Assembly (NCBI GenBank): GCA_951406725.2
Contig: OX597814.1
Location: 97,154,001 to 97,218,000, forward strand
Source of the DNA: Octopus vulgaris
Taxonomy: Eukaryota
Length of the DNA: 64,000 bases
Direction of reading: 5' to 3'
Shown piece after piece: positions 4,639 through 62,089 of the stretch; the stretch's first letter is position 1, and every line of letters begins with the position of its first letter. The translations under genes and the position numbers were made by a program. The notes under the pieces were generated by a model. That model saw only the letters and a program-made list of their open reading frames with translations, made no database searches and was not told the origin of the DNA.

Positions 4639-5878
4639 TGGTGCGATAGGTAAATTGTCACCATTTTATATTTTTAATTTTCCACATGTGCATTGTTTGT
4701 TTTTTTATTTTTTCGACTACACAGTATAGTAGGGTCTATTGGGCACTGTCTGTGAGAAAAACATCACCATGATGCAATTCACTCTGCCAGAAATTTGGAA
4801 ACGACATGCTGTACTGCTTGGCATTTGCACTGGAAGCTCCAATATGAACATTTCGGAGTATTTGGGTGTCAATCTGAGGACATTGCAGAGAATTTGGAAA
4901 GAGTTTGATGAGCCTAATGGTGATTACGAAGATACAGTAGCTTGGAAAACTTATTCTGATAAGAAAAGAACTCCTGTATTTGTTGGTGAGATCCAGGCCA
5001 TGATTGACAATAATCCCTTTAAGTCAATCAAGTCCACTGCTAGGGGTATGGGAGTGTCTGAGTTTCTTATCAGGCAGGTAGTGCATGAAGACATTCGGTA
5101 TTCCTCACACAAGATAAGAAAAGGCCAATTTTTATCCCAAGCCATCAAGAACAAGAGGAAAGACTGCACTACAAAGCTTTTGAACAAACTCAAGCATCCC
5201 CTCCAACGAAACATGTTTTTGTTCTCAGACGAGAAAAATTTCTGCCAGGATCAGATGGTGAACAGACAGAACAACTGTTGGCTTGCTGTGTTCCCAAAAC
5301 ATGTCCCAAGTGTGATAAAAATCAAATATCCAGTCAACATCATAGTGTTTGGAGTGATCGCTAGTGATGGCAACATTAAGCCTCCATTCTTCTTCCTACA
5401 TGGTCTCAGACTCAACACAGAGGCCTACATCAAGTGCCTGGAGGAGGTAGTATTGCACTAAGTCAAGAGGGTGGTTGCTAGAAAACCCTATGTTTGGCAA
5501 CAGGAGTCTGTATCATGCCACACAAGCAGGAGAACCCAGTCGTGGCTGTCAGATAATTTCTGTGACCACATCAACCCAACCACCTGGTCATCAAACACCC
5601 CAGACTGCAACTCCCTTGATTATTACATGTGGAGTGCAGTTGAGTGAGAGACCAACAAAATTCCTTATAATACCAAAGATGAACTGAAGGCAAGGATTAT
5701 GGCAGCATTCACCAACTTAAACAAAGAGGCCATCCAGAGGAGTTGCAGGAGATTCCGAAATCATCTGGAGGCCGTGGTCGAAGCCAATGGCAATTTTATT
5801 GAGTAAATTTACTCTTTAGTAGATATTTTTATGTAATTTTGGTAAATATAACTGTTAGACGACAACTTATTCACCACA

Positions 5879-20927: not shown

Positions 20928-20966
20928 CAGAGACAAGTTTCAGAGTTATTGCTCTTCATCTGTCTG
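20928..20966 (-). ncRNA. Minimal type I hammerhead motif (U4->A) within a 339-bp partial tandem unit (20771-21198)
   Basis: CAGA CAGAUGA AGAG caauaa CUCU GAAAC uu GUC UCUG. Perfect stems I and II and a GUC cleavage triplet. Confidence 0.7.
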
Positions 20967-25770: not shown

Positions 25771-27027
25771 TCAGGGTCAGTAAAAAGTAAGCAATGTTTT
25801 GAAACATGAAATTCATCGTAATATATTTCAACAATGTGGAAATTTGATCCATCAAAGTAAGTACCATTACAATCAACACATTTTTGCCAATGAGTTACAA
25901 GTCTGTTTATTCTGGTAACATAAAACTCTGGAGTTCTGGAGCTGATGAACTCTGAACACACTTTCAGCATCAGTTTGATTTTTTGAACTCTTTCTCTCCC
26001 AGGAAACCATCAAGCTGCTTGAAAAAGTGGTAGTCAGTAGGAGAAAGGTCTGGGGAATAAGATGGGTGGAGGAGAACTTCATCGCCAAGTTCTCTCAACT
26101 TCTGGAGAGTCATTAGTGAAACGTGTGGTCAAACATTGTCATGAAGAATTATCAGCCCTCTTCTGTTGACCAGTCTGAGATGGAAGAGTAACAATCTTTC
26201 ACTCATTTTGGCTATCTCATGGCAATATGTTTCTGCAGTATTGGTTTTTCTGGGTTTTAAGAAGTTATAGTGGATGAGTCCAGCAGTACACCACCAAACA
26301 GTCACCATAACCTTCTTTTTGAAGAGTTCAGGTTTAAGGAAGGCTTTCGGTGCTTCATTTTGGTCTAGCCACTGTGAAAAATTTTTATTATTGTACAGAA
26401 TCCACTTTTCATCGCAAGTTACAATACAATTGATAAATGAATTGGTTTGGTTATGGAAAAGAAGAGATGAACAAATTTCATATCTGCGCATTTTCTGATT
26501 TTCATTCAAATTGTGTGGTACCCATTTGTCAAACAATTTTTGATTTTCCGATCATATGCAAATAGTCGCATGCAGTTTTCCGGCTAACTTGAAATTCTTT
26601 TGCCAGTTCTTGAGTGGTTCTATGTGGATCTTTCTCAATGATGGTCATCAATGATAGATAGCCATCCACTATGCTCATGAACTTCAACGCTCAGGTCTCC
26701 ACTACAAAATCGTTTAAACCATTTTTGAGCTGACCACTCACTGGTCATTTCCTCACCAGATGTTTCGTTGATATCACAAGCAGTTACATCCATTTTTGAA
26801 GTTGAATAGCAAAACTGCTAGAATATTGCGCTTTGGCAGTTCCATTTCATATGATTGTAACAATGGTAAAAAAAAATATCAGTTAATTTAGTGATGCATT
26901 TGGACAAGTCTGTGTCTGTATTATCAGACAATTTTTTTTTAAATGTTTAAAAAAATTCAAAACACTGCAAAAATCTGGTACAAATTCTTCATGGTTCAAA
27001 ACATTGCTTACCTTTCACTCAACCTAA
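25771..27027 (-). mobile_element. Decayed mariner (DD34D) element, frameshifted transposase
   Basis: ORF fragments contain WVPHNL, TCDEKW, LHDNV and YSPDLSPTDYHFF. ~40-bp TIRs (tcagggtcagtaaaaagtaagcaatgttttgaaacatg / catggttcaaaacattgcttacctttcactcaacctaa). ~1.26 kb. Confidence 0.92.
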
Positions 27028-30000
27028 CAAATTTAAACCTCCCATTAAAATTCCATATCAAATCATATTCCAAATACCAGCATAATAATGACAAAGTCAT
27101 TTTGATAAATTTTTCATTATTCTAAAATTTAACTGAAGCAAAGGCATTATATTTCAACATAATTATATAAGAAAAGGGTTTAAATGTAACATTTGTACTT
27201 AGTCTAAATATTGTATTACTAACTAAACTCAAAAACTCTCTAAACACCCAGTGCCATCTTGACATTTATTGCACCCTTTTGAATTCACAACACCCCAAAA
27301 AAGATCAGGAAAGTGCCACTGACATTAAGAACTATTGCTCCAACAAAACTATCAGTTATACAATTCACAATGGATAGACACTAGAGAAGAAAGTCGATGA
27401 AACAGATGAATATAAAAGATGCTGAAGACCTCATAGTTATATTTCTTTTTTTCTTTAGTCGCTGCAGCTTGAGAGCTAAAGAGCTGTTTCAGTCATTGGA
27501 CCAGGGCCATGCTAGAATACCACATTGGAAGGGAATGGTTTAGTCAAACAAATCAACTACAGTACTTCTAAGTACAGTATTTCTAAGCCTGGTGCTTATT
27601 CTATCAGTCTCTTTTGCAGAACTACTGTTATGGGGACATAAACAAACCAACACCAGTTGTCAAGTAACGGAGGCAAACACAGAGAGATATACACACACAT
27701 ACATGATAGACTTCTTTCAGTTTCTATCTACAAAATCCACTCACAAGGTTTTGGTCGGTGCAGAGCCACAAAGGTATTTTTGCACTTCATTTTTCAGAAT
27801 ATTGACATTTTAATAGTTTTGTCAAAAATTTAATATAACCTTTACTCTAAGTCAAAAAATAAATAAATAAATTCAGATTATCACATTACTCAAATTAAAA
27901 AAAAAATAAATAAAAATAAAAAAAGAAAGTTCTTTTCCCTCTGAACATTTCAAAGTAAAAAGACACTACATATTATCAAAATCAATTATCAGCCTGAATA
28001 ACAATAGCAAGGCTTTAACATGGGTAACCAAAAATAGTGACTCAGCATTGAGCTGGTAGCCAATTACATAAGTAGTTTGGTCACTTTCACTATATGTCTA
28101 AGATGATATTTAACAGTTTACTAATCAAACACCCTATCAAAAATTCAGACAAGTAGCTATGTTACTGTGGTTTTCATTCAAGCCAGATAAGCAGCAGACA
28201 AAATATTAATTAAAATTAGTTTTTTTTATATAATAAGCTTTCAGTTGAAGGTAACATACACATACATATCTATACACATACCATATACACACCCACCCAA
28301 AATTCCTTTTGCCTGTGACTAAGTTCCACCTGACAGCTTATGCAACCAGTTTTCATATAACATCAGGTGACACTTTAAATACCAGCTTAAATGAATTTTA
28401 TAATAAATCTAAAACCTACTTTTAGTATTGAATCATCCCCTCCACCAGTATTCATATAACAACCTAAATCTAATACATATATATTTACTATCATCTTGTT
28501 TAACTCCTTAGCATTCAGATTACTTTATCAAGAGTGATGTTTATTTTTTCTTTAACTTGTTTCAGTCATTTGACTGCAGCTATGCCGGATGAACACCTTA
28601 AAGGGTTTTAGTAAAAAAAAAATCAACCCCAGGACTTACTCTTTGTAAGCCTAGTACTTATTCTATTGGTCTCTTTTGCCGAACTGCTAGGTTATGGGGA
28701 CAAACACAGACACATATAAATACATATATATGTGTGTGTGTGTGATGAGTTTCTTTCAGTTTACACCTAGAAATCTACTCACAAGGCTTTTGTTGGCCTG
28801 AGGCTACAGTAGAAGACACTTTCCCAGGTACCACATGGTGGGACTGAACCTGGAATCATGTGGTTGGGAAAGAAGCTTCTTACTACACAGCCATGCCTAT
28901 ATATATATATATATGTGTGTGTATGTGTGACGGGCTTCTCTCAGTTTTTGTCTACCAAATCCACTTACAAGGCTTTGGCTGATCTGAGGGTATAGTAGAA
29001 GACACTTGCCCAAGGTGTCACACAGTGGGACTGAACCCAGAACCATGTGGTTGGGAAGCAAGCTTCTTACCACACTGCCATGCTTGCTCACATTTAAAAA
29101 ATTTAGTCATGTATTATCTTGTAGCTTTGAAATTTTGAAGATGTGATTGTTTATTTTTAGATTAACATTTTAGGGTAGGTGTGAGAAACTGAATTTAGCT
29201 GGCTTCAGCATAAAACAGATAGAATATTTTGGCCAGATATAGCTGATTTAAATGCTAAAGGGCTAAACAGTTACTTTGCTAGAGAATGTAACTGTCAGCT
29301 GTTCACAGCCAAAGGATTATGGTAACACTCCTTACTGAGATTTAAAGAATTCAGTGAGAATTCATGCAGTTCTGTTAACACTGTTTGCTGTAGATCTTTT
29401 GTTTTCACGCATGTGTGTTGTGCTCATGAGCAAGACACTTTATTTCATGCTGCTCTAGTTCACTGAGCTGTATAAATGAGCTGCGACATCACTGGTGCCA
29501 AGCTGTATCAGTCTTTGTCTTCCCCTTGGGTAACATTGGTAGTGTTGAGAGGGGAGGCTGGTATGCATGGGCAACTGCTGGTCTTCCATAAACAACCTTG
29601 CCTGGACTTGTGTCTAGGAGGGGAACTTTCTAGGTGTAATCCCATGGTCATTCATGACTGATGGAGGTCTTTACCTTTTATCCTTTTATATATACAAAAC
29701 ACAAGCTAAGTAACATTATGGCTGTCCATTATTGTCATTTCCCCCCCACCCTCTCTCTCTCATACAAAATTTCTTCTTCTCCACAACCCATCTTCCTAAC
29801 ATCCCTCCATCTCACCACTCACAGCACTCGTGTGTCTGTCCACATACACTTCATGTCCTTACATACTACACACCCTACTGTTCCAACACCACCTATTTCT
29901 TTCTTTTTCTCTCTCTAACTTTCTCCTCCCTTGTCCTATTAGGGTAGCCAAATTTCACCCCTATAGTATAACTATCTTTGTCCCTCTATTATACTCTAAC

Positions 30001-35919: not shown

Positions 35920-36326
35920 CTCTCTTTTACTTGTTTCAGTCATTTGACTGTGGCCATGCTGGAGCACCACCTTTAATCGAGCAACTTGACCCCGGGATTT
36001 ATTCTTTGTAAGCCCAGTACTTATTCTATCGGTCTCTTTTGCCGAACCGCTAAGTGACAGGAACATAAACACACCAGCATCGGTTGTCAAGCAATGCTAG
36101 GGGGACAAACACAGACACACAAACATACACGCACACACACATATATATATATATACATAAATACGACGGGCTTCTTTCAGTTTCCGTCTACCAAATCCAC
36201 TCACAAGGCTTTGGTCAGCCCAAGGCTATAGTAGAAGAAACTTGCCCAAGGTTCCATGCAGTGGGACTGAACCCGGAACCATGTGGTTGGTAAACAAGCT
36301 AATTACCACACAGCCACTCCTGCGCC
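35920..36326 (-). mobile_element. tRNA-derived SINE family A, near-full-length young copy
   Basis: Head GGCGCAGGAGTGGCTGTGTGG...GGGTTCAGTCCC (A/B boxes), internal (TA/TG)n, and a 3' stem-loop CAGTCaaatGACTGAAACAAGTAAAAGAG. Partial copies at ~1095-1300(+), 6185-6322, 8290-8490, 10575-11282, 27484-27765, 28550-29085, 33700-34190, 35300-35692, 36685-37075, 51150-51335, 58270-58470(+), 60570-60760(+) and 61390-61770. Confidence 0.9.
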
Positions 36327-37799
36327 TATATATATATATAAAATTTATTAAACACAAATTTCCTTAATGGTTTATTCTGCCAATGCACATATTTACATAA
36401 TGTGCATCTTTATAGTTGAGTGCTCTTAATGCTAGTCACTCAAGTGAAACTAATGCTAATTTTTCAGATGAAGCAGTAAATTAATTAATCACGCATGAAA
36501 GATTCAAAAGCAACTGATAATATAAAATGAAATCCTATCAACAAGAAAATTTGGTATTGGATTAAATAATTAAATCAGTATTTTTCAAATAGGTGCCATC
36601 CATTAGAATGCCTTGGGATAACTCAAGAAGCGATATTGTAAAACATGTCCGAAGGAGCATTGGGTTTATTTATCTTTTGTCTTTACACTTGTTTCAGTTA
36701 TGTGACTGCAGCCATGCTGGGGCACCAGCTTGAAAATCTTAGTTGAACAAATTGACATCAATACTGTTTTTTTTTTTTTTTAACCTGGTACTTAATCTAT
36801 CAGTCTCTTTTGCTAAACTGCTAAGTTAAAGGGATGTAAACACACTAACACTAGTTGTCAAAAGATGGGGAATAAACACAGACACAAAGACACACACATA
36901 GATATATTCACACACACATATACACATATGATGGGCTTCCTTCAGTTTCCATCAACCAAATCCCTCTCAAAGAATTCGTCAGCCTCAGACTATAGTAGAA
37001 GACACTTGCTCAAGGTGTCATAGTGAGACTGAACCTGGAACCATGTGGTTGGGAAGGAAGCTTCTTATCACACTTTCCCATGCTTACATAGGTCAGATTG
37101 ATATTTCTGAGATGGATTTTCTATAGCCAGATATCCTTCCTGTTGCTGACTGTTATTTGTTTACAAGTAAGATATTTCCTCATAACCAGATATGTTTTCA
37201 TGGAATGCTAGGAATGAAGAACAATGTTGCATGATGATGTCATTTGTTCACAACTATCACGCCACATCAAAGCAAGGAAATAGTGACACACAAACACACA
37301 CATATATCTATACACGATGGACTTCTTTCAGTTCCTGTCTACCGAATTCATTTGCAAGGCTTTGGTCAGCCTGGGGCTGTAACAGAAGACACCTGCACAA
37401 AGTCGCTATGCAGTAGGATTGAACCAGAATCATGTGATTGGGAAGTAAACTTCTTACCACACACCCATGCCTGTACCTATAACAATATTACTATTATCTT
37501 TTAAATTTCCAGTGTCAACATCTTTTAAGTTGAATGACCCATCCTACAGAGTAATACTTTGGAAATGATGCAAGCAGAGAGAAACAAAGGAACCCTACAA
37601 CAACAAAATCACAAAGCATTTTCCTCAATAAAGACCAATTGTTCTTTCTCATACATCAAAGCAAACATTATTAAACATTATTTCATGAATATTAAGCAAA
37701 GCTTAAACAGAAAGCAAACAGGATAAAGTCCATTAAACTAGTCCAACACAAGAGAAATTAAATATTAAAGTCAATTTTCAAATAATAAGAGACCCAGGA

Positions 37800-38230: not shown

Positions 38231-39135
38231 AAAAACTGAACATAAAGAAAATCCACTGTGCTAGATCAACACCAGAGAAATTAAACACTAATGGCAATTT
38301 TCAAGTAATAAAATATTACCATTATATATTCATGGCACATAAAAGGCACCATTCAAGTGTGATCGTTACCAGCGTCGCCTTACTGGCACTTGTGCCCATG
38401 CTAGTATAGTGCCAAGAGCACCATCTGAGCGTGATCATTGCCAGAGCAGCTAACTGGCTTCCGTGCTGGTGGCATGTAAAAAGCACCCACTACACTCTCG
38501 GAGTGGTTGGCATTAGGAAGGGCATCGAGCTGTAGAAACTGCCAGATCAAGATTGGAGCCTGGTGCAGCCATCTGGTTCGCCAGACCTCAGTCAAAATTG
38601 TCCAACCCATGCTAGCATGGAAAGCAGACGTTAAACAATGATGATGATGATATGAGACTGAGAATAGTGAAATATAATCAGTATATGAATAATGGTTTCA
38701 GCCCAAGTAATAAGGAGATAACACAATCTTAAAATATTCTTCATGTTATTTACATACCAAAACATTCTATTAATATAAAAAGTATATTTAGTGATTCTCA
38801 GAAGACTCAAGTAAAATTACAAAAATATACAGCTTTTATATTTTATTTTCAAACTATTTTAACAGTTAATGTCTTCCTTCTTAGGGAAAAACTTTGGTAA
38901 GCACATATGTGCTTAATTTACATATGTATCCAGTTAAAATATTTAGAATGGGGACTGTGTGTGTGGGGGGGGGATGCAGCCTTCCAAAAACAAATCTGGA
39001 TTTTGTATTAATGAATACATCTTTATTGAGTACATATGATATTTGATGCTCTTAAATTATTTTTAAGAAACATGTTTAAAAAAATTAGTTAACAGTATTT
39101 ACATTCGTTGGATATTTGTCCTCATCTTGTTTGTT

Positions 39136-39180
39136 AACATAACGTTTCAGCTGATATACCATCCAGCCTTTTTCAGGTGT
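39136..39180 (-). ncRNA. Minimal type I hammerhead ribozyme motif (decayed copy, G8->A)
   Basis: ACAC CUGAAAA a GGCUG gauggtatat CAGCU GAAACGUU aUGU. Confidence 0.7.
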
Positions 39181-39390
39181 GTTGGGGAAATTTCGAACCT
39201 GGGTTCTCATTCCTAAGGTCTTTTTTGATATTATTATTAGTATTGTTCAGGTCACTGCTTGGAATCGAACTCGGAATCTTGGGGTTAGTAGCCTGCGCTC
39301 TCAACCACTATGCCATATGCCTGAACAACAATAATAATAACATCGAAAAAGACCTTAGGAATGAGAACCCAGGTTCGAAATTTCCCCAAC

Positions 39391-39434
39391 ACACCTGAAG
39401 AAGGCTGGAGGGTATATCAGCCGAAATGCTGTGT
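39391..39434 (+). ncRNA. Minimal type I hammerhead ribozyme motif (decayed copy)
   Basis: ACAC CUGAAGA a GGCUG gagggtatat CAGCC GAAA ugcu GUGU. The sister arm has GAAACGUU. Confidence 0.75.
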
Positions 39435-40503
39435 TAACAACAAACAAGATGAGGACAAATATCCGTCAAATGCAAAAAATGTACATAATTCCTCATCTCT
39501 TAAATATAGAACTAAATTAGTAAACAGTTTTATTAACTATCTATATTTTCACAATAAATGAAATCACACTTTCCATATGACATTTTTTTCCTTCATGCAA
39601 TTTTATTGAATTGTACTTAATTCAATGAAGCCATCAAATACATAAAAAAAAAAAAAAAAAAACAAAAACAAGTTCCTTGTACCTGATCTGCAGTATTAAT
39701 TACTCCAGTTAAGTTTGTTGATACATCACTACCCCTCCCCATGACATATATATGATACATACACACATGAATATAAATATACATATGTGTGTGTATTTAT
39801 GTATATATAAATATATATTCCATTTTATATAAATAAATAGAAATAGGGAGTGACTAGTCATGTGGTTAAGATGCTACTCAAATAATATCAAAGTTTAAAC
39901 TTTGCTAGAGCCAACTATATCAGGCCATTTCGGGAGATAAATTGTCTAACAACTTGAGATAAGCAAAAACACACTTAACTGTAAAAACACTTGTCTTAGC
40001 ATGCTCGGTTAGCATGTGAAACATGAAAACCTTTCAACAATATTCAAAACATTTTGATTCATTGCTTTCAAATACGAGACCTGAATAATACAGACTGTTT
40101 GGTTTTCAAAAACATTTTTCAACAGAAGCCTCTAACATACTATGTACAAGTGAATAATATGTACAAAAAAAAATAAATAAAAGGTTGTAATCATTTAATA
40201 TCAAGATGTCCATGTTTACATGGTTCAGACAGAATTTGTTGAGACATATTTTCTAGGACCAGATGCCCTTCTTGTCAACCTGCACCTGTTTCCATGCAAG
40301 GTAATATTTTCTCATAGCTGGGCATGTTTTTCACAGAGGACTGAAAAGGAACCATCTCACCAGTATGATGATGGTGCTCACTTACACAAGCATCACATGA
40401 TATCTAGATAAGGACAAATGCAAACACATACATCAGCAGTGGTGCCCCAGCATGGCTGCAGCCTTCGGGCTGAAACATTTTTAAGGATTTAAGGACATAT
40501 ATA

Positions 40504-45104: not shown

Positions 45105-45142
45105 TCTTTTACGTTTCGAGCCTACGCTCTTCAACAGAAAGA
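45105..45142 (-). ncRNA. Minimal type I hammerhead-like motif with variant core CUGUUGA, in a ~200-bp Penelope-like fragment (45005-45210)
   Basis: UCUUU CUGUUGA a GAGC guag GCUC GAAA CG UA AAAGA. Perfect stem I (5 bp) and stem II (4 bp), with palindromic ACGU in place of stem III. Confidence 0.7.
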
Positions 45143-49314: not shown

Positions 49315-49627
49315 TACGTAAAAAGCACTATCCGACTCGTGGCCGATGCCAGCGCCGCTTTGAATGGCTTCCGTGCCGGTGGCACGTAAAATACACCAAT
49401 CCGACTGTGGCCGTTGCCAGCCTCGCCTGGCACCTGTGCAGGTGGCACGTAAAAAGCACCCACTACACTCACGGAGTGGTTGGCGTTAGGAAGGGCATCC
49501 AGCTGTAGAAACATTGCCAGATAAGACTGGAGCCTGGTGCAGCCTTCTGGCTTCCCAGATCCCCGGTCGAACCGTCCAACCCATGCTAGCATGGAGAACG
49601 GACGTTAAACGATGATGATGATGATGA
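49315..49627 (+). mobile_element. Repeat family B (RTE-like 3' tail / SINE ending in (GAT)n), young copy
   Basis: Internal repeats of (ggtggc)acgtaaaaagcac, core gttggcgttaggaagggcatccagctgtagaaac, and tail gacgttaaacgatgatgatg. Other copies at ~860-1030(-), 4370-4590(-), 13560-13850, 30060-30330, 32090-32260(-), 34890-35125, 38330-38650 and 51435-51580(-). Confidence 0.85.
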
Positions 49628-52424
49628 TATATATATAAAGAACAGTTGTAACTTGTATTTAAGATATCATTAAATAGAATAAAAAAAACTTGTAAATTGT
49701 AGTGTGTAAAAAATATCTTTCTATTAACAGATACATTTTATAGCACACAACAGTTTATGTTCAACATTTTGTTGAATTTAAGTTCATGAGTATTTTAAAT
49801 GCAAACAGCATTCAAGTAATCTGAATGTAAAACTTTAACAGAATTCAGATATTCACTTCCTATAGCTCAAAAGGATATGAGTCACATCAGTTATAAAATG
49901 AACCAGGATTGCTCAACCTATCAGAAATATTAACCAAGTTTCCCTCAAACTGTCCATTTTACCCATTACTTTGAATAATGTTAGGCCAAATACCACTAAA
50001 AATGATCAAGACTGAAATGCCTTTTATCGGGGGTAAACAACAACCCGGGGTTAAAAAATAACAGGAACCAAATATATTTTCCTAATGCTAGAGCTGAAGA
50101 GGAAGCCTCTATATGAACAATCGATCTGTTAGAAATAACAGTCAAATACCCTCAAATCCAATCCAACTCTCTGAAAGAAAGACATGAAATACCTTTGATC
50201 AGAGGTTTACACAATCTGGGTTGAGATGGGGTTAATCAACAATAACAATTAGTTCATAATATTTTAATGTTTTGAAAACACAATGGAAAATGTGTTATAC
50301 ACTTTAAATCAAGACAAAATGATATTGGCTGGAACATGTCTGCTCAATCAGATGTAGCCTGGGGTTAAACAACAACAAAATTCAAATTGATCTGAACCAT
50401 CTTCACATTCTCTGTTATTAGTTTTCATAATTAATAATTAGTAAATAACTGAGATAGTTAAATAAAGTGACTACACATCAGGGACGTATTTCTGGGTGTG
50501 CTGTATATCCACTGAAGACAGCCATATTACCATAAATAAGCTTACTCAATACTATAATGAAGGATCTAATCCTGTTTATATTGTGGTAGTAATTTTTAGA
50601 TAGCACTGCTCACCTAGTTGTATCATGCCCTGGCACTATCAGAAAATGGGACAGTGACAAAATAAAGTATCATGCAACAAACTCCTAGCCCTTGGGTCAC
50701 TTTTTAACTGTTGCTGATTAAAAATAATGTAGCACTGTATCAGCCAGACTACCAGATGTTATACACCGCTGGTCACAATGCACATCCTTGTGTTGTAGTA
50801 GCTTTTGAATGATGCCATCCTGCTGGGCAGGCCAACATTCCCCTTTGAATAAAATGCCTGTCTGTTGCAGGGTTACAGCTGAGTAGACTGGAGCAATGTG
50901 AAATGAAGTGTTTTGCTTAAGAACACAATGTACTGCCAGCCTAGGAAATGAAACCATTATCTTGCAATTATGAATGCAATGCCCTAACCATGAGGTCCTG
51001 TGTCTTTACTATACACATACACACACACACACTTGTTTTGGGTTCTAGTTATCCTGTTTGTACTATCACAACTGACCTAAGGGTCAGTGACAATCCACCA
51101 GCATATCCCAGTTTTTATTTTTATGGGGAGACACATTCTTTTCTTTTCATTCTTTTACCTGTTCCAGTCATTGCTGTTATGTTGAAGCACCACCTTGAAG
51201 GGCTTAGTTGATCTACCAACTTCAATCAAAAGCATTGGGGTAGCCCTGTGTTGGAGTAGAAGACACTCAAAATGTCATGCAGAGGGACTGAACCGAAATC
51301 CCATGATTGTGAAATGAGTTTCTTAACCACATAGATATGAATGTATGTAAGTATGTATGTATGTACAGTCATTGAAAATTCTTTAAGTGATTTTCTTGCT
51401 GTATAATCTGTTTTCTAATTTAATATGATACACCATCATCATTGTTTAACAATCTGCCTTCCATGCTGGCGTGAGTTGACGATTTGACAGGAGCTGACCA
51501 TGCAGGAGCATGCATCAGACTTGTGTGTCTGTTTTGGCAGTTTTTACAGTTGGATGCCCTTCCTAACACCAACCACCCAGCAGAGATACCCAGAAATAAA
51601 GATTAAGTGGGAAGTTTGGGGCTGTTGATGTAACAATTATCTGCTGTTGTTTTCAGTAACCAACAGGAATAGTTTAGCTTGGTAAGTTGTGTTGAACTGC
51701 TCACCCAGTTTTATGATTTCCTTGATTAAAGTAGCCTCTGTTTCCTCTTCAATGAAAATTACAGAATAAAAAAATGCACTAATGCAATTGAAACAAAGAG
51801 GCTCAGTGTGTGATATAATCAAAGAATTACAAGTGACTTATTCCTTTTCTTTTTTACTTGGTTCAGGAATTGGACTGTGGCCATGCTGGAGCACCACCTT
51901 GGAAAAGGTATCTTAGTGCTTCCGTTATTTTTAAATGTATGCATAACCAAAAGCTCAGTTTATGCATGACAATTCTATTTGCAATCTGTGCTATTTATAG
52001 AAAAAGACTAATGTTTTTATTGGTGGGGGAGGTTAGAGCAGAGTCAGGTTGAGTACTAGATAGCTCAGTGCACACACTATGATAACCACACACCACTGCT
52101 GCACACACGTGTACCATTACCATTCTTCTAAAAGAAAACATAATTCAAATGGGTTAATAAGTTTAAGCCTCATCATTAGCATTCCTTCTGATTCAGAGAT
52201 TACATCAAATATATTTTGTTTCCTTCCCAGACAGTAACGAATGCCTATGTCTATATCTTTATAAGATGACAGAACAAAGGGTGCATGAGACAATATAATT
52301 ATCCTGAAAATAGTCTGTATTCATTCTAAACCACTAAAATCTAAAAATTAGCTTCTTAGTCATAGCCGTTATTGAAATATTGCTAAGATAAGCATATGCT
52401 AACGTTAAACTAATAAACGCCCAT

Positions 52425-52490: not shown

Positions 52491-53403
52491 TATGAAGAGA
52501 AATATTGTTTTGATAACACTCATAAATTTACAATGATGTGAAGTTAACAATAGAATTCCATCAACTTTCAATAAATATTTCTGATAGATTCATTGGGAAA
52601 TACAAACGCTTTCATTTTATCAAGAATATGAAACGAAATCTCAGTTACTCGCTTTCTTTTCGACATCAATTTTTAAAAATTCTTTATCATTTACGATTAT
52701 TTTTCGTGCTTTACGTTTTTAGAGGGATGTTTTCATAACTCTAAAGTGCACGAGCCTACGAGGCTTCTACCTATTCACCCGAGCTGTTATAAATAGCAGC
52801 CAAATCTTGTTCAAACCATGCCTCAAGTATTATAGAGATTTCAAATTTCACCTTTAATTAATGTAATCTAAGACAAACTACTGCCAAGGCAAAAAAAAAA
52901 AAAAAGGATGGTCACAGGTGAAATACTCAATACAGAGTCCTGAATACCGAACTACGTTAACCAAGGGTTAAATAACCCCCAAACTAATTGTTAACATGTC
53001 AGATCGCGTATTCTTTATCTCCACCGAAATATCCTAGTTACCAAAAGTAAATAAGGACAATTTAAAAGAACTTCAACAAATGTTAACATAAGATAATCTT
53101 GTAAAGTAAATACCCAAACATGAATACACACAAAATTTATTTTGAATACCATACGTAAACGAAAATCTGCAAACATTTTACTGAAACTGTTTCCAAAGAC
53201 TTATTCTGTTTTTGCAATATCCTATTATTCCAAAAGAAAACAACAAGCATTCGTGTAATTCACATTTTATGTGAAAGGCATGCAACATATTTTTAAGAAA
53301 CTTATCACACACAAAAAAGCAATATATATATACACACACACACGTTAACAAATATATATATATAATTCAAACATTCTGACCACTCGCATAAACAGCATTA
53401 TTT

Positions 53404-53461
53404 TAGATAGATAGATGGCTAGATAGCTAGAAAGATAGATAGATAGGTGGATAGATAAATG

Positions 53462-53520
<59 letters not shown>

Positions 53521-53649
53521 GGACGGATAGATAAATGGATAGATAGATAGATAGATAAATGGATAGATAGATAGATGGACGGATAGATAAATGGATAGAT
53601 AGATAAATGGATAGAAAGATAGATAGATAGATGGACGGATAGATAAATG

Positions 53650-53692
<43 letters not shown>
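53404..53692. repeat. (GATA)n microsatellite with GGAT/GGAC variants
   Basis: Directly visible. Confidence 0.97.
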
Positions 53693-53693
<1 letters not shown>

Positions 53694-53969
53694 CAGACAC
53701 TGGGTTGGTGGTGAACGTTTGTTTACAAACGGACCAAAAAAGCACTCAATACACAAAAGTAAAATATAATTATTAGAAGCACAAGCATTTTCAATCATCC
53801 TTCAGTCTGTTCAAATTATAAGAAACAAACGGTCAAGAAGCTTCAGCTACTTATATATATATTTCAAGGATATAAATACCTCTTGAAGAGATGTCAGCAT
53901 ACAAGTTCTTTTTCTTATATATTTATAATAATAAAGCACAATATATTTATAACATTGACCAGAACTTAC

Positions 53970-59407: not shown

Positions 59408-60008
59408 TTTATTTCTTGTCATTTGAAAAGAAATAATAATAATTATAATGGTTTCAAATTTTGCCACAAGGGGAGCAGTTTTGTGGGGGAGGGATGAGTC
59501 AATTACATCGACCCCAGTGTTCAATTAATTACCCTTTCTACTACTGGCGCAAATGCTGAAATTTTTAGGAAGGGGGCTTGTCGATTCTACTAGCTCGCCG
59601 CCTTAATAATAATAATTTTTTCCTACTATAAGCACAATGCCTGAAATTTTAGGGGAGGGAACTAGTCGATTACATCGACCCCAGGGCTCAACTGAGACTT
59701 ATTTTATAGACCTCGAAATCATAAAAGGCAAAGTTGACCTCGACGGAATTTGAACTTAGAACGTCAAGGCAGATGAAATGCCGCCAAGCATTTTGCCTAG
59801 TACTTTGTTCTTCGATTTCGAAAGAATGAAATGCGAAGTTGACCACAGCAGGAGTTGGACTCTGAACGTAAAGAGCTGAAAGAAATGGCGCTTAGCTTTT
59901 TATCTGACAAGTTTGGACCTGTTTCGTGTACAACTGAGATGTATAATGTGAATGAGTGATGCATACTATATGTTAAAGTTATATATGAATAGTTCGGGCC
60001 GCTCGATG

Positions 60009-60486
60009 CTATCTATCTATCTATATATCCGTCCGTCCGTCCGTCCGTCCGTCCGTCCGTCCGTCCGTCCGTCCGTCCGTCCGTCCGTCCGTCCGTCCGT
60101 CCGTCCGTCCGTCCGTCCGTCCGTCCGTCCGTCCGTCCGTCCGTCCGTCCGTCCGTCCGTCCGTCCGTCCGTCCGTCCGTCCGTCCGTCCGTCCGTCCGT
60201 CCGTCCGTCCGTCCGTCCGTCCGTCCGTCCGTCCGTCCGTCCGTCCGTCCGTCCGTCCGTCCGTCCGTCCGTCCGTCCGTCCGTCCGTCCGTCCGTCCGT
60301 CCGTCCGTCCGTCCGTCCGTCCGTCCGTCCGTCCGTCCGTCCGTCCGTCCGTCCGTCCGTCCGTCCGTCCGTCCGTCCGTCCGTCCGTCCGTCCGTCCGT
60401 CCGTCCGTCCGTCCGTCCGTCCGTCCGTCCGTCCGTCCGTCCGTCCGTCCGTCCGTCCGTCCATCCGTCCATCCATCCATCCATCC

Positions 60487-60560
<74 letters not shown>
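60009..60560. repeat. Compound tetranucleotide array (CTAT)n-(CCGT)~108-(CCAT)n-(CTAT)n
   Basis: Pure CCGT from 60029 to 60460. Confidence 0.98.
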
Positions 60561-60561
<1 letters not shown>

Positions 60562-62089
60562 ACTACCCACAATTTGGGAACCGGTGTTGGATTGCTTACG
60601 TACCCATAGCCTAGTGATTTGGCAAAAAGAAATGATAAAATAAGTACCAAACTTTAAAAATAAAAAGCACCAGTGCGATTTGATCAAGTAAATCCTTAAA
60701 TGTCGAGCCCCAGCATAGCCCCAGCATAGCCGCAGCCAGAGACTGAAACAAAGAATAAAAAGAAAATAATAATATATCTAAATGTGACCTGAATAAGCAT
60801 GAATATAACCTCTTTTGAAAGAATCAATACTGGAAATTCCTACACTACAGATAAAATCCAATCCATAGCTAATCGAGTAAACATACTAGATAGACTAATA
60901 ATGATCCTGAACCAAAGTTAATTTATATTTGAACGTATCTTTCATGCTCTGTTTATCTATTTTTCAAACTAACCGATTTATTTTAATCCTTGAACGTAAT
61001 TATAAGTGTAGAATTCATTTTTACAGGTAAAAACATTTAAACTCTCATCAAATTTCATTTAACATTATGTAGTTTTTTTGTGAACCTTAGCTGGTTGATG
61101 AAGAAAACGTTGATATTACCCCTCACACACCTAAACCAACTTTACATCTTGCATAATAAGATTTTTTTAAAGCAAATACAGTTTAGAATTTATGAAAATT
61201 GCATATAATGTGTCAGCGGAAGTTAATATTACCGTCTTTCATTTTGTGACGGACTTGGCGCACAGTCACCCCCTCCCCCGAAACTGATCTTTCTGATTTT
61301 CCGTAAATGTTTTTCTTGTGCACCCCCACCTAACACCTGCACATAAACGCACGCAGATACACATGGATGAAGTCCCATTTTGGAAGTATGTTACTTGTTT
61401 CAGTTATTTGACTGCGGGCATGCTGGAGTACCGCCTTTAGTCGAACAAGTCGACACTAGTACTTATTTTATCGTTGACATTTGTCGAGCCGCTAAGTTAT
61501 GGAGACGTAAACACACCAACATTGGTTGTCTAGCGATGGGACCGGGGGGGGGGGGACAAACACACATATATAAGCCTTGTAAGTGGATTTGGTAGACGGA
61601 AATTGAAAGAAGACCGTTGTATATATATATATATATACGACGGTCTTTGGTCGGCCCGAGGCTATAGTGGAAGTCACTTACCCAAGGTGCGATACAGTCG
61701 ACACTAGTACTTATTCTATCGTTCACGTTTGTCGAGCCTTTAAGTTATGGAGACGTAAACACACCAACATAGGTGCCGAGCAAGTGACTAAACTTGTAGA
61801 TTTAGTTTGGATTAATCCAATGAATTGACAGCAAGGTAATTGCTTCTATCAGTATCGATTACCTTTAAAGCGAAAAAACTAAACCGACATATAAGACAGT
61901 TATGTAATATATATTTGTGTGTACCTCTTTCTCCGTTTGCGCACACACAAACACAAAAATTCTCCAGACATTTAGCTGTTATTTTTAGCATTACGAATTT
62001 CCTGGTGAGGTCTTTACATGCCGTGATCCTTTTGCTGTTTCAGTATAAATTTATGCGCGCGGAAACGGCCGTTCATTTTCGCTTTATAC

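Follow-up and report, generated by a model that had tools for sequence, protein, structure and literature searches.

The octopus tRNA-derived SINE families OK, OR1, and OR2 were reportedly described by Ohshima and Okada in 1994. Like the family analysed here, they have a tRNA-like head with an A box and a B box, are shorter than 700 bp, and are present in tens of thousands of copies. The definition given by SINEBase ties SINEs to the reverse transcriptase (RT) of LINEs.

Insertions of Penelope/Poseidon, Neptune, and Nematis elements are described with a minimal hammerhead ribozyme near the 3' end and an inverted 5'-truncated copy, and also with a 30–40-nt tail at one end, an AT-rich target, and a target duplication (PMC8557442, PMC3846280, PMC11167929). 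The hammerhead, the inverted copy, and the tail recur in the octopus family, and the present copy also has AT-rich flanks and a duplication. Penelope-like insertions often consist of an inverted 5'-truncated copy with a 30–40-bp tail at one end, a tail described as unseen in non-LTR insertion (PMC8557442), and rotifer examples combine the tail with 8–10-bp duplications (PMC3846280). Such palindromes have been ascribed to self-priming on an antisense template (PMC3846280). The Poseidon protein of the anole makes nicks in the two strands of AT-rich DNA and extends both, and reverse transcription starts at two internal sites bounding the tail (PMC11167929). The anole Poseidon hammerhead depends on the protein for cleavage, and insertion in vitro proceeds without it (PMC11167929).

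Non-autonomous derivatives of Penelope are already known, for example Chlamydomonas MRC1 (PMC8557442). MRC1 and the non-LTR retrozymes are non-coding and have been proposed to borrow the enzymes of Penelope-like elements (PMC7761336; bioRxiv 10.64898/2026.07.22.740005; PMC8557442). Animal non-LTR retrozymes carry type I hammerheads, and their defining features are tandem units and circular RNAs. In schistosomes, the repeats Sm-alpha and Sj-alpha likewise combine a tRNA-related Pol III promoter with a type I hammerhead, and are short, non-coding, and of high copy number; they are described as tandem arrays that the ribozyme cuts into monomers (PMC6765202, PMC2770079).

The element studied here lies in a 64,000-nucleotide stretch of Octopus vulgaris DNA (contig OX597814.1), hereafter the window, whose positions are counted from its first letter. 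It occupies 39097–39513 (417 bp) and is flanked on each side by a 15-bp direct repeat; the parts are as follows.

39082–39096, plus strand: target-site duplication, left copy, AT-rich, 15 bp, identical to the right copy in 14 of 15 letters.
39097–39251, minus strand: sense arm of the head-bearing unit, with an AAT-rich linker (~39224–39245), body, hammerhead, and tail-less 3' end.
39136–39180, minus strand: left minimal type I hammerhead, damaged at G8 and the first stem I pair (compare the family majority letters at 39140 and 39171–72).
39250–39321, minus strand: tRNA-like head, with A box at 39305–39315 and B box at 39262–39270; 2 nt are common to each arm.
39320–39477, plus strand: inverted second copy, 5'-truncated at the 3' end of the head, with a 2-nt overlap with the head.
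39391–39435, plus strand: right minimal type I hammerhead, predicted cut between 39430 and 39431, damaged at 39427 and 39429, where the family majority letters restore it.
39478–39513, plus strand: one-sided extension (Penelope-type tail), 36 nt, with family loose ends behind 39483, 39489, and 39513.
39514–39528, plus strand: target-site duplication, right copy, beyond which the family depth is at flank level (48–70 in run X1).

The inverted ~150-bp arms that the first-pass annotation had recognized are confirmed: 39097–39251 and 39320–39477 pair as reverse complements except for 15 mismatches over 155 aligned letters and one 3-nt gap (90% alike). The 417-nt element folds with −249 kcal/mol (z = −30), none of 100 shuffles being equally stable. 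The flanking direct repeat listed in the same annotation is also confirmed: when 44-nt stretches were paired at random, a repeat of at least 15 arose in 4 of 1,988 pairs. The right-arm tail, put at ~37 nt, is indeed one-sided, but measures 36 nt here and ~31–34 nt in the family, whose tail-less ends map near 39483. A tail stretch (39490–39498) is able to pair with the arm (39447–39455) over 9 bp, which would place the tail-less end in a loop, although this stem is weakly supported (z = −1.95; 11 of 200 shuffles are as stable). Poly-A is missing from the element.

No second copy of the element is present within the 64-kb window. Far more frequent interspersed repeat families are found there, which have no significant BLAST match to the element (for example, 35923–36340, 28549–29087, 36687–37473, 38427–38655, 49427–49637, 1591–1818, and 2186–2425). 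The window also contains a transposase remnant with a Pfam Transposase_1 (mariner-type) match (26129–26551, minus strand), another with a weak HTH match (4733–5461, plus strand), and long tetranucleotide microsatellite arrays at ~59990–60600 and 53345–53800.

The head carries an A box and a B box with a 34-nt spacer on the minus strand (39262–39315). The pattern, searched with consensus sequences of the two boxes, has its sole match in the window here and is absent from 100 shuffles, in agreement with the tRNA-like centre proposed at first. ARAGORN and Rfam make no tRNA call on the head, and the term 'tRNA-like' therefore refers to the boxes. The present copy lacks 7 nt of the 5' end of the family head. 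Over the half of the head that holds the A box, the family reaches a depth of 0.43–1.8 million, as against 4.0 million over the B box (X1); many copies may be devoid of the A box, or alignments may be clipped there. The sense strand contains no TTTT, the Pol III terminator, but shuffles give the same result (P ~0.7), and this absence was dropped as evidence on Pol III.

The element has no ORF for RT and GIY-YIG endonuclease, and its open frame has no Pfam match; it is therefore not an autonomous Penelope-like element. The head-bearing unit (~230–270 nt) is short, non-coding, interspersed, and of high copy number, as SINEBase describes for SINEs. The present copy is likely inactive. It is also likely, judging from arm divergence, to be roughly 10–15 million years old: 5% per arm at 0.0036 per million years, a rate taken from PMC13282606, gives ~14 million years if the arms were identical at insertion.

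Each arm contains a minimal type I hammerhead and each is damaged differently, as had been noted. In particular, the left one has lost G8 (39171) and the first stem I pair (39140), and the right one has lost U16.1 (39429) and is changed at 15.2 (39427); positions follow the hammerhead numbering. The right arm (39391–39435) fits the descriptor of the minimal type I hammerhead with one mismatch, a tolerance at which the left arm is not listed, and neither arm matches the hammerhead models of Rfam, Hammerhead_1 included, at E up to 10. A Rfam match to MIR5048 (72.8 bits, threshold 160) merely reflects the long hairpin. The majority letters of the family make up an intact hammerhead core, including the CUGANGA and GAAA motifs, with C at 39427 in 74–84% and T at 39429 in 94–98% of the depth. 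The core sequence derived from the two arms has A at position 7, where 57–78% of the family depth has U. The majority hammerhead has an extra base after position 9, a G10.1–C11.1 pair, and a palindromic stem III, a combination that neither present arm retains. An extra base between 9 and 10.1, the G10.1–C11.1 pair, and palindromic 15.2–16.2 are described for the minimal hammerheads of metazoan Penelope elements (PMC4209133).

The predicted cut lies 52–86 nt from the 3' ends. Processing by the ribozyme is the weakest step of the earlier reading, since the cut would part the promoter head from the priming region and hammerhead cleavage is dispensable in the Penelope element tested in vitro. Joints of the head at the predicted cut (39430–39432) account for three of ten joints and nine of 19 contigs (rough binomial P ~0.002). 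These are not counted as evidence of cleavage, because the 5' end of the head shares a 3-nt word with the same place and the joints are the 15 best-supported of 345. Elsewhere in the window lies another minimal-hammerhead-like motif (45106–45141, minus strand), unrelated to these, in which stem III is palindromic and the core has one mismatch; it is likely a remnant of another Penelope-type family. A weaker match lies at 20928–20966 (minus strand).

Contigs from four public sequencing runs (chosen among 24), three of them DNA-type from organisms A, D, and E, were aligned to 38850–39750. The DNA-type runs yield 41,988, 19,687, and 36,515 matching contigs, respectively. The summed depth over the B box is ~46,000–91,000 times the assumed single-copy level, a depth rather than a copy number and to be read only as 10^4–10^5. 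The single-copy level comes from flank bins for X1 and X7 and from contig depths of 45–65 for X13, whose own flank bins (34–136) would widen the ratio to about 30,000–120,000. The present copy is one decayed member of a very abundant octopus repeat family. The named matches to the family are Octopus, and exact-pattern scans of metagenome contigs, viral contigs, and prokaryote genomes give no match.

The layout of head, arm, inverted arm, and tail recurs across this very large family. The arm-to-head depth ratios are 1.66, 2.17, and 1.46 and the tail-to-head ratios 0.99, 1.61, and 0.81 in the three DNA-type runs, which is what insertions with a single head, two arms, and a single tail would give. 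The join of head, linker, and arm has a depth of 160,000–770,000 in X1, despite the variable AAT repeat. The joint between the head and the inverted arm of the present copy is nearly private, with a depth of 1,944 at 39322 versus 430,000 at 39311 (X1). No contig among those listed spans the whole element. The 15 best-supported of 345 joints include neither a sense head-arm-tail source copy nor an empty site, and the duplication is therefore documented by this one copy, where it is 15 bp long and AT-rich. The fourth run, X15, guessed to be RNA, gives 5,237 contigs with a DNA-like arm-to-head ratio of 1.62, and was discarded as evidence on expression, strand, or editing. A contig of organism D (39490–39627, two differences) was rejected as an orthologous insertion, having just 24 letters inside the element against a bar of 31.

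The outer ends of the family fall into two classes in the three DNA-type runs, one at the tail end (39513 plus three common letters; 396, 290, and 360 contigs) and the other near 39483–39489, without tail (195, 164 + 98, and 193 + 128 contigs among the rows listed, respectively). Long AT-rich flanks of low agreement follow in both classes (median 255 letters). For the head, loose ends lie behind 39321 in all four runs, and its 5' end continues for seven further common nt before becoming variable (median 47–58 letters, agreement 0.47–0.48). Among the 15 best-supported of 345 joints, ten connect the 5' end of the head (39306–39323) to the inverted arm, three connect a head-less arm to the inverted arm, and two are internal deletions. 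Thirteen of these 15 thus show an adjacent inverted, variably 5'-truncated copy, and together with a further contig table they give 12 different landing points from the head end (39369–39477). This pattern indicates a unit of head, linker, arm, and optional tail, the second arm being an inverted copy whose truncation varies. What had been taken for a fixed twin-hammerhead design is better read as one unit plus a second copy truncated variably at insertion.

Both arms of the present copy share letters that are absent from >95% (39181/39390) and >99% (39220/39351) of the family depth, indicating that they derive from a single source or event. The tail is carried by the truncated arm, so snap-back copying of the other arm cannot have produced it. 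At 39484, 15–23% of the depth, and also loose ends behind 39489, point to tail-less ends followed by extra copies of the 9-nt repeat of the arm end; a telomerase-related enzyme that copies the priming site more than once could give rise to these repeats.

The protein searches return many short spurious frames from other copies of the repeat. From 39361, one frame stays open to the end of the tail. The N-termini of one gene model each from Octopus sinensis and O. bimaculoides match the open frame in the right arm, as does a short UniRef entry from O. bimaculoides. In P0003, the O. bimaculoides model, the 5' end of the head is read in sense and is followed by the hammerhead, with 20 of 22 letters compatible (17 in the best of 30 shuffles). 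P0002 residues 1–39 and P0003 residues 1–32, where the annotation of two Octopus gene models places the opening coding segment, come from the repeat family by exonisation or annotation error; one model encodes a protein that by eye is TNF-receptor-like, and the other an isoform of dystrobrevin beta. P0015 is a head-less inverted copy with a tail at each end.

Most protein matches belong to a related sister family, whose looked-up members lie in ENA contigs and which is laid out in the same way, with a tRNA-like head of its own. One chosen pair of sister-family peptides in two frames fits a single DNA with 9% conflicts, compared with at least 27% at other offsets. This pair fixes 101 of 127 positions and requires a single A box and a single B box, which are separated by 54 nt and point away from the arm that follows. 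Peptide markers chosen by eye, applied to a search-selected set of 179 related peptides, place an antisense arm in 27 and an antisense head in 16 ahead of the sense arm. In the same set, 54 peptides, mainly of the sister family, contain at least two tandem units. In P0007, P0074, and P0079, these are direct tandems of ~43 codons (hammerhead to tail end), up to four per frame, located after the body; they hint at retrozyme-like arrays that may grow from a tRNA-headed element. In P0054, P0101, P0030, and P0043, the arm and tail have diverged further, and two of these variants have antisense readings upstream that resemble the head; they hint that there may be more related families. A test for A and B boxes by back-translation of single peptides was uninformative: the A box is found in 13 of 179 peptides versus 18–42 in shuffles, and the 67 matches to B plus A are mostly one repeated body motif.

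These observations make it likely, in our judgement, that the family is a short tRNA-headed parasite copied by Penelope retroelements instead of LINEs, because the inverted truncated copy, the tail, and the duplication match Penelope-like insertions. In such a scheme, a source copy reading head-arm-tail would be transcribed by Pol III from its own A and B boxes. A Penelope protein would bind the arm/tail region in trans and nick both strands of AT-rich DNA ~15 bp apart, and reverse transcription would start inside the RNA at the arm end (~39483) and the tail end (~39513–16), one start per nick. One cDNA would reach the head and the other would stop early, and head-to-head joining via 2–3 nt of homology would generate both the fold-back and the duplication. 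The hammerhead would likely be inherited from a Penelope end, be dimer- or protein-dependent, and probably be dispensable for insertion. Fold-backs could also form by self-priming on an antisense template, the route of PMC3846280, still with Penelope enzymes. The originally proposed integration by Penelope enzymes has its insertion signature but not an autonomous partner: no protein of RT length is found in four protein searches (2, 71, and 0 matches, and the best 120 of 598), nor any autonomous Penelope ORF, and no Pfam match to RT or GIY-YIG is obtained in 18 of the 67 long frames of the window.

Could the short copies instead be by-products of an autonomous Penelope element whose pseudo-LTR begins with a tRNA-like head? 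Such copies need not propagate themselves, and the first priming site of the Penelope mRNA would yield head, arm, and tail only. A Penelope pseudo-LTR plus tail is known to overlap the start of the ORF (PMC11167929, PMC3846280), and the frame from 39361 stays open through the tail in the sister family as well as in the present copy. However, loose ends beyond the tail agree for 3 nt only (agreement 0.44–0.49), no long protein begins with the open frame or an alternative frame, and the heads of the two families differ in A–B spacing (34 and 54 nt). We consider this explanation unlikely. A LINE-dependent tRNA SINE with a captured Penelope end is less probable again, although octopus is rich in LINEs and the short tandem 9-nt repeats at tail-less ends resemble the repeat tails of SINEs and LINEs. 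Its inversions would have to arise by LINE twin priming or DNA rearrangement. LINE twin priming inverts a non-overlapping 5' part, but both arms here copy the same 3' part of the RNA. Moreover, poly-A is missing, and the optional tail is of a kind reported as unseen in non-LTR insertion (PMC8557442).

Another rival is a DNA transposon of the miniature inverted-repeat type, with long inverted repeats at its termini and a tRNA fragment as passenger. Being short and non-coding, with inverted arms, a flanking duplication, and a high copy number, the element resembles one, but its outer ends are unequal owing to the tail, its inner joint differs between copies, and the sister family also forms direct tandems; the variable joints largely refute this reading, to which we give very little credence. 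Even less can be said for a SINE head that by chance came to lie, just once, between a pair of Penelope remnants, which the single copy in the window would allow. The family-wide join of head and linker, the similar depths of head and tail, and the rare letters shared by both arms speak against it, and no loose end leads the head into another body among the 24 listed of 1,598 loose-end rows. Chance nesting, one of the outcomes that the first-pass annotation had held out as overturning its reading, is refuted by the contig alignments unless the aligned contigs are mis-assigned; another of them, a consensus with a broken core, is countered by the intact core of the majority letters.

A tRNA-headed family with the full Penelope signature would be direct structural evidence that telomerase-related Penelope enzymes also carry Pol III SINEs. 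Hitherto, tandem retrozymes are the case for which a Penelope partnership has been put forward, on the grounds of their distribution and of relatedness in sequence (bioRxiv 10.64898/2026.07.22.740005; PMC7761336). Tens of thousands of short copies would record the starts, stops, and joins of Penelope RT, and the origin of Penelope inverted repeats and tails becomes testable by counting.

Each insertion would also be its own hairpin, and the family is a possible major source of octopus double-stranded RNA. By a rough estimate (130 nt per arm, a 2.8-Gb genome, and depth as a proxy for copies), the arms make up 0.4–0.7% of the genome. The hyper-editing rate of octopus is among the two highest of the species tested, and its share of near-perfect double-stranded loci is exceptional at 4.4 × 10^-3, in an analysis from which repeats were excluded (PMC5625713). 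The arm estimate is roughly of the same order as this share, a candidate link to hyper-editing. More tentatively, and with rather more doubt than confidence, we suggest a cephalopod class of Penelope-mobilised Pol III SINEs with at least two families, whose arms, at ~0.4–0.7% of the genome, would feed octopus A-to-I hyper-editing. If so, one family would supply a large share of the double-stranded RNA behind it.

A family so abundant is surely present in Repbase, Dfam, SINEBase, or the library of PMC13282606 under some label; a search of the PMC13282606 supplement gives no match for 'hammerhead' or 'ribozyme'. Among the papers listed by full-text searches of a mainly non-subscription literature, judged by title, opening of the abstract, or selected passages, we found neither a report of hammerheads in octopus repeats nor a tRNA-headed SINE with the Penelope signature of inverted copy and tail. 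The initial view that the combination belongs to no well-described class holds in part, since a tRNA head with a hammerhead is known in schistosomes and its union with the Penelope insertion signature is what was not found.

Compared with Sm-alpha and Sj-alpha, as these are described, the octopus family is set apart by being dispersed, by its minimal hammerhead, and by head-to-head fold-backs with a one-sided tail. Head-to-tail tandem units, which characterize retrozymes and Sm-alpha, are found neither in the present copy nor among the 15 best-supported of 345 joints, and the main text of bioRxiv 10.64898/2026.07.22.740005 on retrozymes contains no occurrence of 'tRNA' or 'promoter'. Endonuclease-bearing Penelope-like elements have randomly truncated coding sequence, whereas the octopus unit has no ORF and a defined tRNA-like 5' end. 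Without claim to strict membership of either group, the family works like a SINE and inserts like Penelope.
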